From contig OZ220480.1 of the NCBI GenBank assembly GCA_965116025.1, forward strand, positions 928,001-992,000: a stretch of 64,000 nucleotides of DNA, written 5' to 3'. Source of the stretch: an uncultured candidatus Porisulfidus sp. (GTDB taxonomy: Bacteria; Pseudomonadota; Gammaproteobacteria; Poriferisulfidales; Poriferisulfidaceae). The notes beneath the pieces are model-generated. The model did no database searches and was not told the DNA's origin. It saw nothing but the letters and a program-made list of their open reading frames with translations. A program made the translations under genes and the position numbers. The first letter of the stretch is position 1; each line of letters starts with the position of its first letter. Positions 58,086 through 61,259 of this stretch are shown in pieces.

Positions 58086-59104
58086 AAGGTTCCTCGTGGA
58101 GTTGAGTTATTTCGCGGGCTATCAGGACCGCGCCGCCACGCTAACTCCGGCGGCCGCCTCAATCGCCTGCTCCAATTATGGACGAAACTGCCCGCCCGTC
58201 AAGTTTCCGCTCCCATCTCTTCGAATCGCGACCACGCCCGATGGCTCAGGCGCGGTGACATGATTTTCAGCGGGGGAGCCCGCCAGAGCGAGCGCGACGC
58301 TTTCTCGGCGGCCTTAAATAAGGTGAGCGCCCGGCGGGTGTGGGGGTCGCCTGGGCGCTCTGGGGTGGCGCGGCGGGCAGGCCGCGCCTAAAACGACCGC
58401 GCGTTCGGTAGGGCGCGACAAAGCGGCCTGACGGTGCGGGACGGGTAGACGCGCGAGCCGCGCTTCTACCCAATGCTCGCTATTCTAACATGGAAACGTG
58501 GCCGGCGTACGAGCACGTCGTTTCCCCGAACTCCAACCGGAGGACGAAGAATGGCCCCGCTTCGTCGCCGGGATTGAGCCAAACGTCGTCTATGCCGAAA
58601 CAAACGGTCTTTCATGCCGTCGTTTTCATGCGCCAGCAATGTAAGGCTTCTTGTCTGCGAGCGGAACAAATCTGGGAGAACCGTTCGTCTGTATGACATA
58701 GTCAAAGGTCACCTCGTCATGGTCATCACTTCTAGTATCATCCTTGATTCCGAGCACCTTAATTGCTGCCCAATATCCATTCTCATTTTGTAATACGGCG
58801 ACTTGCCCAATGTTGGGTCGGCGGATCCTTGATGATCCATCATATTTACGAGCGTCAACGATGTTCTCAATTTCGCTACAATCCTTAGCAATTGCAATAG
58901 TACGAATACTACTCGGATCTTTAAGAATCTGTATATTCCGATCACTTGATTTGCTGAAAGCAATTTCAAACATTTGCTTGCCGCTACCTATGCAATAGCG
59001 GCCATTGTTATTTGTGATGGGATGGTTCGCCCCGCTTCCCTGCTTGGCCTTGAGCGGGCACAATGAGAGTACAACCAACCCATCGCGAAAGCGGGACGAC
59101 CCTT

Positions 59105-60151
59105 ATGAAGCAGACTCTACATCAACTCGCCATCGCCCATCTGGGCGTGGACCTGGGCAAGCAGGCGTTTCACGCCTGCGGCATGACGCGCGCCGGCAAG
59201 ATCGCGCTGGAGAGGCGCTTCACGCGGGCTCAGCTGGAACGCTTCGCGGAGGAGCTGCCGCCATGCCGGGTCGGGCTGGAGGCCTGCGGCGGCGCGCACC
59301 ATTGGGCGCGGCTGTTCCGTCGTCATGGGCACGACGCGCGGCTGATGGCGCCGTCCTTCGTGAAGCCGTTCGTGAAGTCGAACAAGAACGACGCGCGCGA
59401 CGCGGAGGCGATTTGCGAAGCGCGGAGCCGTCCGAGCATGCGCTTCGCGCCGGCACGGTCGGAGGCCGAGCAAGCGATCCAGCAATGCCATCGGACGCGG
59501 GAGCGGCTGGTGCGGAGCCGCACCCGGCTGGTCAACCAGTCGCGCGCGTTCCTGCAGGAGTACGGGATCGTCATGCCGAAAGGGATCGGGGTCTTTCGCG
59601 CGCGGCTGCCGGAGATCCTGGAGGACGGCGAGAACGGCCTGCTTCCGGAAGTCCGCGAGGCGCTGGCGGAAGGCTACGAGGAGGTGCGGGCGCTGGATCG
59701 GCGGGAGGGGGATTGCCGGGCGCGGATCCAGGCGCATGCCGAGGCCGATCCGGGCTGCCGGCGGCTGATGACGATCCCGGGCATAGGCGCGCTGACGGCC
59801 AGCGCCCTGGTCGCGAAGCTGGGCGACGGCGGCGAGTTCCGCAATGGGCGGGAGGCGGCCGCCTACCTCGGCCTGGTGCCGCGGCAATACTCCACCGGCG
59901 GAAAGCCGAAGCTCGGAGGGATCAGCAAGCGGGGGGACCGCGCCTTGCGCGGCCTGCTGATCTTGGGCGCGAAAGCGGTATTGCGCGTCTCGGACCAGCG
60001 CGAGGACGCGCTCGGCGCTTGGCTTCGCGGCCTGCGGGAGCGCCACCACGACAACGTGGCGGCGGTCGCGTTGGCGAACAAGAACGTCCGCGTCGCCTGG
60101 GCGCTGCTCCGGCGCGGCGGAACCTATCGGGAGGAAGCCCGCATGACATGA
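59105..60151 (+). CDS. IS110/IS1111 DEDD recombinase
   Basis: GVDLGK, GLEACG, KNDARDA (DEDD), IPGIG, YLGLVP..YSTGG (catalytic Ser), ALANKN.R. Confidence 0.95.
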   Translation: MKQTLHQLAIAHLGVDLGKQAFHACGMTRAGKIALERRFTRAQLERFAEELPPCRVGLEACGGAHHWARLFRRHGHDARLMAPSFVKPFVKSNKNDARDAEAICEARSRPSMRFAPARSEAEQAIQQCHRTRERLVRSRTRLVNQSRAFLQEYGIVMPKGIGVFRARLPEILEDGENGLLPEVREALAEGYEEVRALDRREGDCRARIQAHAEADPGCRRLMTIPGIGALTASALVAKLGDGGEFRNGREAAAYLGLVPRQYSTGGKPKLGGISKRGDRALRGLLILGAKAVLRVSDQREDALGAWLRGLRERHHDNVAAVALANKNVRVAWALLRRGGTYREEARMT

Positions 60152-60400
60152 GGCTTCCCTCCGTATCCCGGCGGGCTCTGCCCGCCGATCGGTTGCGGGG
60201 AAGAAGCGAAAAGATGGCGGAACAGGTCGGACCGACGCTCCGAGACCTTGGATTTGATACAGGCCTTCGAGGCCGTTATTGTGATAAGGACGGAGCGTGC
60301 GAAACCCATCGGGGCCCGGGAGGCGACGTCCTCCCATCAAGAGGCCGGATATATGTGCGCAGCCGATCGACCGTCGCTTCAGCTTCCGACTTGCAGGGAG
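60152..60400 (+). ncRNA. Putative bridge RNA / seekRNA of the IS1111-type element
   Basis: Two stem-internal loop-hairpin units (60236-60297 and 60298-60361) whose loops match the flanks and the element ends; transcript ends unknown. Confidence 0.75.
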
Positions 60401-61259
60401 GGGGCGAACCATATATAATCAAATGTGACGTGCCCCTTAGGCGATGAAGAGACATATTTTTCTGAGCTCGGCATGAATCTCTGATTCGAGAATTGCTTTA
60501 TCGTTTCGAACGGATTGTCGCCTATTGGAGGAACTGGGAGGATAGGCTCATCCAATAGTGACCTAAGCAATTCTTCGTATTTTTCCTCATACCTTAGATC
60601 ATCTCGAAAATCCACATAGAAGCGTCCCATTAGAAAGGTTGGTGTTGGTGCTAAATCAGTATTTGTATTATCACGAATCACCGGGATCACGTAATCCGCG
60701 CCTAGATCGGCCATTATTTTCGCCGTCATTATCTGTTTCTCATAACCTACGCCACCTTCCGTTGAGGTAGCCTTTCGCACGTAATTCTCTGAGCAGATGC
60801 ACAGTACACGATCGGATTCAGATAATCCTCTCTCGATAAATTCCGCCACGTCTTTTCCTAGGCTAAGGTTCCACTGATCCAATATCGCGTTCACTCCGTT
60901 ATGACGCAACCGTGTGGCCAACTGAAGCACCCAAGTCTTGTGGTTTTTGCTATCGTGCGAGTAAGACACGAATACTGACGGGGCCATTTTGCAGTTCCTT
61001 CTTGTTCGGGTTGTATCCCAGTATGGCGCGGTTGTTGAGTCTTGGCCTGCCCCTAGCGACTGGCCCAGTGTGAATTTTAGTGCATTGACGATTTCTCTGT
61101 CAAACTGGCGGTTTGCCTCGATATTCGAGCATCCCGAACGCGTGTCCACGCCCAATCGCCGGTTCCCGTCAGCGGGCGCCATAGTCGCACCAATTTTTCG
61201 CGGACCGCGTTTCATGGGGGTATCATGGAATCCCTCATGCGCGGCGCTCACATGATCAA

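Follow-up and report, generated by a model that had tools for sequence, protein, structure and literature searches.

The element and its transposase gene

The window, i.e. the entire 64,000-nucleotide stretch of DNA analysed, carries at positions 59017-60415 a 1.4-kb element assigned to the IS1111 group (IS110 family) and lodged within a low-GC gene for a TIR-domain protein (Table 1). Comparison of the 348-aa transposase with Pfam returned PF01548 (DEDD_Tnp_IS110; E = 1.3e-19) and PF02371 (Transposase_20; E = 5.5e-25), and the C-domain could be aligned with the IS621 recombinase of PDB 8wt6 (E = 1.2e-7), an alignment that places the Thr of the transposase STG motif against the Ser of ESG in IS621. 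The 12-bp subterminal inverted repeats, ATGGTTCGCCCC at 59022-33 and its reverse complement GGGGCGAACCAT at 60401-12, lie 5 nt and 3 nt respectively inside the element ends (the range published for the group being 7-17 bp; PMC11208160, PMC11187229), and the non-coding DNA amounts to 264 nt on the 3' side of the gene (60152-60415) versus 88 nt on the 5' side (59017-59104).

IS1111 members are described as having their non-coding region downstream, a transposase of 330-350 aa and a GL-P----S(t)G motif (Siddiquee et al. 2024, PMC11187229). The element exhibits both domains, the subterminal repeats, a long downstream non-coding region and a 348-aa protein with the motif GLVPRQYSTG. Its insertion was furthermore site-specific with duplication of the shared core only, as judged from comparison of copies B and C with empty sites that are paralogues at a locus other than the occupied ones, and from a flank pattern common to seven copies. 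By these features the element is classified as a further member of the IS1111 group, a kind already known, and the stretch 59017-60415 looks active.

Table 1. Features of the element, its flanks and its predicted guide RNA, followed by the target-loop letters of the three guide classes found in the genome
Feature	Position in window	Strand	Details
Host TIR-domain gene, split	58626..61251	-	N-part 60418-61251; C-part 58629-59016; TIR_2, E = 1.9e-23
Left target half-site TATTTG	59009..59014	+	4/6 against guide TTATTG in family register
Left core copy TG (predicted)	59015..59016	+	TG in 7/7 full copies; single TA in empty paralogous sites
Left element end	59017..59104	+	starts ATGGGATGG; subterminal inverted repeat ATGGTTCGCCCC at 59022-59033
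Transposase/recombinase gene, 348 aa	59105..60151	+	DEDD RuvC-like N-domain; Tnp C-domain with motif GLVPRQYSTG
Conserved two-module RNA (putative seekRNA/bridge RNA)	60233..60364	+	covariance model R1, 126.4 bits for this copy
Target-binding module (predicted)	60236..60297	+	outer stem 60236-42/60291-97; inner stem 60247-49/60287-89; hairpin 60262-74
Target loop 5' strand GGATTTGATACA, putative right target guide	60250..60261	+	6/12 positions vary among own copies
Target loop 3' strand GTTATTGTGATA, putative left target guide	60275..60286	+	5/12 positions vary among own copies
Donor-binding module (predicted)	60298..60361	+	closing stem 60299-301/60358-60; inner stem GGCC 60313-16/60343-46; hairpin 60318-35
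Donor loop 5' strand AAACCCATCGG	60302..60312	+	reverse complement (C)CG-ATGGG = core + left end
Donor loop 3' strand GGATATATGTG	60347..60357	+	reads right end ATATA + core TG
Right element end	60365..60415	+	conserved CTTGCA box 60390-95; repeat GGGGCGAACCAT 60401-12; terminal ATA
Right core copy TA (predicted)	60416..60417	+	TA in copies A-D; TG in E, H; AG in F; GG in G
Right target half-site ATCAAATG	60418..60425	+	TCAAAT of the guide displaced by one base; 2/8 in register
Guide class A-D			5' strand GGATTTGATACA; 3' strand GTTAT(T/C)GTGATA; D = GTTCTAGTGATA
Guide class E, F, H			5' strand GGTGTTGACATA; 3' strand GTACAAATGATA
Guide class G			5' strand GATGTTGATCTA; 3' strand GTACGAATGATA

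At the right extremity, positions 60391-60419 comprise the CTTGCA box, 17 nt and then TATAAT (60414-19), an outward-facing promoter-like arrangement with a -35 match of only 3/6 that was not reported by the promoter scan. The TATAAT spans the right end, the core and the flank; in a circle, equal spacing would give TATGAT across the junction. The sole promoter-like match which that scan did return lay inside the target loop (60254-60282, 9/12), and was not accepted as real.

A conserved two-module RNA downstream of the gene

The 264-nt region 3' of the transposase gene encodes a predicted two-module RNA, module 1 containing the target loop and module 2 the donor loop. The original prediction of a bispecific RNA of the IS1111 kind encoded downstream of the ORF was supported by the two Pfam domains, the 12-bp repeats and the long 3' region described above, together with an order of guide matches as published. 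Its component stems, which covary in homologues, were present as quoted: in loop 1, an outer stem of CGCTCCG (60236-60242) and CGGAGCG (60291-60297), an inner stem of CCTT (60246-60249) and AAGG (60286-60289), and the hairpin GGCCT-TCG-AGGCC (60262-60274); in loop 2, a stem of TGCG (60298-60301) and CGCA (60358-60361), and a hairpin of GGGAGG (60318-60323) and CCTCCC (60330-60335).

A scan of reference genomes yielded 80 loci with relatives 45-68% identical, and one layout was common to the regions 3' of the genes. RNAalifold, applied to 18 sequences, gave 27 pairs with compensatory changes in 15, and in the homologue alignments such changes occurred in all three helices of the target module, the donor inner stem likewise changing from GGCC/GGCC to GGCA/TGCC. 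A search of 89 sources with a covariance model of the homologous 3' regions (R1: 137 positions, 23 pairs) located the structure after transposase genes and gave 90 matches, every one of which extended across the full length of the model. In the R1 alignment, 95.1% of pair cells were paired versus at most 38% with the partners slid, double changes were present in 19 of the 23 pairs and none of 500 shuffles reached any of these measures, although such pair statistics lean towards the model because the alignment behind them was fitted to R1.

Both strands of the module 1 loop were 12 nt long in 18/18 aligned sequences, and thus have a fixed register. The 3' strand opens with a G, followed by six left-flank letters and then the core, and closes with an invariant tail; in the window copy these are 60276-81 (left flank), 60282-83 (core TG) and 60284-86 (tail ATA). 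The reverse complement of the 5' strand consists of two spacer letters, the core and eight letters equivalent to the right flank.

The fold of the single sequence was unremarkable (z-scores of -1.98 and -1.73); since the target is near-palindromic, its guide strands pair with one another in that fold and the internal loops are missed. The signal in excess of chance is that of comparison (stem covariation, and the shuffles of guides against flanks reported below), not that of the single-sequence fold. An Rfam scan of 58900-60600 at E values up to 1 returned nothing at 60152-60415, its sole match being a 16-bit Cis90_sRNA on the opposite strand inside the ORF, and the RNA is not covered by any Rfam family.

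Copies within the genome and the letters of the target loop

The genome that contains the window (2.02 Mb, one contig) harbours seven full copies of the element (A, the window copy, to G) that are 90.5-100% identical, one partial copy (H) adjoining copy E, and fragments. Five copies (A-E) have an intact transposase ORF, whereas that of F is truncated and that of G broken. Copies B and C exhibit no differences over their whole length, and occupy two diverged paralogous sites with left flanks 78.6% alike, a combination that indicates recent site-specific insertion.

Target-loop letters covary with the flanking DNA, both within this one genome and across homologues. Among the seven copies, variation affects 11 of the 24 target-loop positions and 157 of the other 1374 (Fisher p = 3.4e-5); stems and module 2 hardly vary, and the loops fall into the three classes listed in Table 1. 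As the original prediction would have it, loops and insertion sites also correspond in the other copies, and a change of site is accompanied by a change of loop. The guide of copy E, ACAAATGAT, is identical to its own left flank, which ends AACAAATGAT; the left flank of copy F ends CATAAATGAT, and the right flank of copy H begins TG-TCGCC. The left flank of copy C ends TTATTGTGAT, the TTATTG-TG of which is identical to the guide of the window copy, and the right flank of copy D is TA-TCAAATG.

When guides and flanks were scored in the near subgroup, which comprised 17 loci and the 8 own copies, the cognate means were 3.9/6 on the left versus 1.6 for non-cognate combinations, and 4.8/8 on the right versus 2.2; on either side, none of 20,000 shuffles reached the observed sum. 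In the wider set, for which 77 of 90 rows were kept and the 13 with non-standard loop lengths dropped, cognate scores for 52 and 55 distinct guide-flank pairs exceeded all 20,000 shuffles. Poor fits were retained in these counts, notably copy G (0/6 left, 1/8 right) and L023 (1/6 left, 1/8 right), the left flank of L026 was assigned by hand, and the scores of Acidobacteria-type elements are lowered by a right half-site that looks one base further out than the register used.

Taken from copies B, C and D plus the empty paralogous sites, the natural specificity of the A-D guide class would be about YATTG-TA-TCAAAY. The natural target is situated a few bases 5' of the start codon in a family of small coiled-coil/TM paralogues, for which Pfam gave a weak CCDC90-like match (E = 1.6e-4) below the cut-off. 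The genome retains no site that departs from the ideal 14-mer of the class by one mismatch or fewer, and four sites have two mismatches, including the empty paralogue near 254,706.

Several other features were recorded among the copies. R1 gave ten matches in the genome, two of which lack a transposase gene and lie in right-end remnants; these diverged copies of RNA plus right end (G000:C1:429144-429271 and 1475576-1475710) have no transposase domain nearby, and their target-loop letters differ from all three main classes. A ninth Transposase_20 match, at G000:C1:243245-243460 inside a 393-aa open frame with no R1 match, looks like a different IS110-family element. At G000:C1:1413620-1415664, copy E is followed directly by partial copy H, which starts at element position 750, and the left flank of E and the right flank of H jointly fit the E-class guides; one origin that would fit this arrangement is self-insertion at an internal ..GGCTG-AT-GACG.. 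site with subsequent recombination between the repeats. The window copy differs from B and C at eight positions, six of them clustered in the 29 nt at 59065-59093 just 5' of the transposase start codon; the remaining two affect the target module, one in its stem (60248, where a U.G pair results) and one in its guide (60280).

The donor loop and the element ends

The complementarity originally read in loop 2 was confirmed: CCCATC (60305-60310) is the complement of GATGGG (59016-59021), and ATATAT (60349-60354) is identical to 60411-60416. Set out by strand, GGATATATGTG contains ATATA-TG, i.e. the right end plus the core, and the reverse complement of the 5' strand, CCG-ATGGG-TTT, contains the left end preceded by the core, whose first base is read through a G.T wobble.

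Across homologues, left ends ATGGG, ATGGA and ATGAG are accompanied by donor guides CCCAU, UCCAU and CUCAU, respectively, apart from some G.U combinations. In 58 of 77 loci the donor guide matched the right end over 8 nt, at 41-49 nt past the model, and most of the 19 misses resemble the window copy in that the right junction carries the core of the target. Nine covarying classes of guide and end were distinguished, ATATA-TG, ATACA-TT, ATATA-AG, ATACA-CG, ATAGA-TT and ATGTA-CG among them, the elements so compared being related by shared ancestry. In five loci (L025, L027-29 and L036), AG replaces TG jointly in the left target guide, the donor guide and the right junction. The evidence from the wide set is partly circular because the ends were located via the donor guides, and the weight consequently falls on the fixed position of the match and on the changes of class. 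Among the copies of this genome, variation in the donor loop is small (6/66 positions), and its near-constant letters thus provide no natural test there. With the caveats of shared ancestry and guide-located ends, the second loop is complementary to what would be the joined element ends, the putative donor.

The core dinucleotide and the two junctions

Similarity to contigs from three DNA runs stops at 59014-59017 and 60415-60416, and the loose contig ends that set the limit of the right end begin at 60415-60416. Within the same genome, the B/C site has three empty paralogues, which read CATTG-TA-TCGAAAC, CATTG-TA-TCGAACC and TATCG-TA-TCAAACG, and copy B reads CATTG-TG-[ATGGG...CCATATA]-TA-TCAAACG, from which it follows that the element extends from ATGGG (59017) to CCATATA (60415) with a T-R dinucleotide on each side. 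The core, previously regarded as ambiguous by about 2 bp, is thereby resolved to a predicted T-R dinucleotide, its window copies lying at 59015-16 and 60416-17. An alternative core of AT, which would restore the TIR frame, was dropped once the empty paralogues and homologues had fixed the register.

Throughout this genome the left junction is always TG, and the right junction is the dinucleotide of the target (TA, TG, AG or GG). A left junction of TG was also recorded in L016, L017 and L038. The other homologues with a located left end (among loci L018-L095) mostly have the first core base followed by A (TA, AA or CA) on the left, and keep the guide-specified core (TG, AG, CG or TT) on the right. 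Empty paralogous sites in the genome of one homologue (G041, loci L097 and L101) read CTGAGT-AG-TTAC, and the A of the left junction is therefore not derived from the target. It is an unlikely though conceivable interpretation that the two core copies of the clade are systematically unequal so as to act as a lock on the inserted state: a mismatched core base would be passed on via one strand of a heteroduplex core, and copies with mismatched junctions would persist as poor substrates for excision.

The window copy and the interrupted TIR gene

The window copy itself fits its guides imperfectly. The first of the two matches originally described, ATTTGAT (60252-60258), is indeed the reverse complement of ATCAAAT (60418-60424), but lies one base out of the family register, in which the right flank ATCAAATG agrees with the guide-expected TCAAATCC at only 2/8 positions. 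The second, GTTATTGTGAT (60275-60285), does equal GTTATTTGTGAT (59007-59018) minus one T, but the gap is needed and the last four letters are not target, the terminal TGAT being constant in 7/7 copies and made up of the core TG and the AT with which the element opens. Full guide matches are thus obtained only with one base skipped on each arm. The TIR site is an imperfect match, and so this copy is not the clean, complete set of recombinase, RNA and target that had been proposed.

The host gene has a GC content of 45-50% versus 64-67% in its surroundings. Its uninterrupted homologues are single 307-aa proteins that read ..VTFDYSNNNGRY.. across the break (VTFDY-S-NNNGRY); an intact host gene would require GTTATTTGT-R-TAATCAAAT, which is 2 nt more than the left flank, core and right flank joined by the family rule. 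Candidate explanations of this shortfall are slippage of a TA/TG unit, a frameshift predating the insertion, or an aberrant event. The window copy is most readily interpreted as an off-site insertion into a near-cognate target, and the one-base displacements together with the 2-nt shortfall suggest that the recombinase may tolerate bulged half-sites.

Contigs from three DNA runs of one study, examined over 58400-61000, included none that bridged an empty window site and none with the right-end/left-end joint of a circle, the flanks of the window copy being covered by only one of the three runs. A search of 40 related genomes for the empty site with the left flank gave no match beyond the genome itself. 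The product of the TIR gene comprises the TIR domain and a conserved C-terminal domain without a Pfam match, and its 307-aa homologues are widespread (203 proteins at E values up to 0.001, the best being 89% identical).

Proposed mechanism and alternative explanations

The reading that best accommodates these data, and which is considered very probable, is that 59017-60415 is an IS1111-group element whose 3' non-coding region encodes a bispecific guide RNA. The target module would function as an internal loop, the 3' strand of which, equivalent to the left flank plus the core, pairs with the bottom strand. The donor module, likewise built, would read the abutted ends of the excised circle (..ATATA, core TG, ATGGG..). 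Once loaded with this RNA, the DEDD/Ser-type recombinase would exchange strands at the core dinucleotide to give left flank-core-element-core-right flank without further duplication. It is presumed, by analogy with the published work on IS621, ISEc11 and ISKpn4, that the RNA is produced and that the protein binds it; the circular intermediate and the order of strand exchange are presumed likewise.

A different division of labour, in which module 1 alone serves as the guide, in the form of a short seekRNA of ~80-100 nt, module 2 is a scaffold or part of a precursor, and the protein recognises the ends via the subterminal repeats plus target-like donor flanks, is judged improbable. It would accord with the account of ISEc11, ISKpn4 and ISPa11 (PMC11187229), in which the purified RNAs are short, with 82-96 nt predominant and target matches alone described, with the emphasis placed there, for ISEc21, on a donor that must carry target-sequence flanks, and with the slight variation of donor-loop letters among the copies of this genome (6/66). 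It does not, however, account for the joint change of donor strands and element ends over nine classes, including that of the core from TG to AG in L025, L027-29 and L036, or for the identity of modules 1 and 2 in internal-loop architecture and register, and donor-complementary loops in IS1111 elements figure in the description of Durrant et al. (PMC11208160). Given the published seekRNAs of 82-96 nt with target matches only, the donor module may belong only to a longer form of the RNA. That the stem-loops are simply the ordinary 3' UTR or terminator of the transposase mRNA, with coincidental matches of loops and flanks, can be set aside as extremely improbable: hairpin 60262-74 followed by GTTATTGTGA is terminator-like in a pattern scan (2 such sites versus 1.1 in shuffles) and the single-sequence fold is not exceptional, but it is the loops and not the stems that vary, the loops change in step with the flanks (0/20,000 shuffles), and the T-run belongs to the guide and is not the same in every copy.

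Relation to known systems

The bispecific RNA proposed here may be compared with the seekRNAs described for ISEc11, ISKpn4, ISPst6 and ISPa11 (PMC11187229), elements which, by that published description, share with the present one a downstream non-coding region, subterminal repeats, a transposase in the 330-350 aa range and a GL-P----(S/T)G motif. In the same account the top-strand match of IS1111 seekRNAs lies 5' of the bottom-strand match (PMC11187229), and the target matches found here are likewise to opposite strands, with the top-strand one 5' and the two overlapping at the insertion point. Unlike those four elements as described, this one targets the beginning of genes in a small coiled-coil/TM family, and, in contrast to the seekRNA description (PMC11187229), it has a second, putatively donor-reading module that is backed by covariation. 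The best plasmid-borne relatives were at most 51% identical.

Bridge RNAs are described as having left guides that pair with the bottom strand and right guides that pair with the top strand, the core being present in all four, and for 93% of IS1111 elements they are predicted to lie in the right end (Durrant et al. 2024, PMC11208160); the present element agrees with this description, including the core in all four guides. The likeness to IS621, as described in PMC11208160 and PMC11208158, lies in a pair of internal loops that each contain one guide for the bottom strand (left) and one for the top strand (right), in a core on both sides of the inserted element, and in a homologous C-domain, the N-domain having no similarity detectable by phmmer. 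Unlike that of IS621 in these accounts, the RNA here is in the right end rather than the left, the order of guides inside each loop is reversed, the core is T-R rather than CT, and the subterminal repeats are 12 bp long.

The two bases beside the right target guide, unlike the handshake guides described for IS621, do not consistently fit the donor. The handshake-guide rule was accordingly not adopted here: agreement of the spacer bases with the right-end TA is seen for the E class (UA), whereas class A-D and the majority of homologues lack it. The loop bases next to the hairpin in the window copy (60260-60261) occupy the IS621 handshake-guide position, and the CA of the A-D class matches the TG of the cognate target. 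In IS621, such pairing to cognate DNA is described as blocking recombination in vitro (PMC11208160; PMC11208158). Copies B and C nevertheless look recent despite this match.

A further parallel, drawn from descriptions and not from sequences, is ISPpu9 of Pseudomonas putida with its downstream Ssr9 (PMC12288879), an element of the IS110 family whose transposase gene is followed by one for a small RNA, of which further copies exist elsewhere in the genome, much as two of the ten R1 matches here lack a transposase gene; unlike the element described here, ISPpu9 targets REP sequences (PMC12288879).

Significance

Both the class of element and its logic were published in 2024, and the finding therefore extends known biology without changing it. 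RNA-guided IS110/IS1111 recombinases are under development as programmable DNA-insertion tools, and natural examples that reveal which letters of the RNA set specificity are useful for that reason. One 2-Mb genome provides three classes of guide in copies that are otherwise 90-99% identical, and offers five intact copies of the recombinase gene together with both occupied and empty target sites. The family alignment in turn fixes the register for the clade: a left guide of six letters plus the core, and a right guide that comprises, 5' to 3', eight letters, the core and a two-letter spacer.
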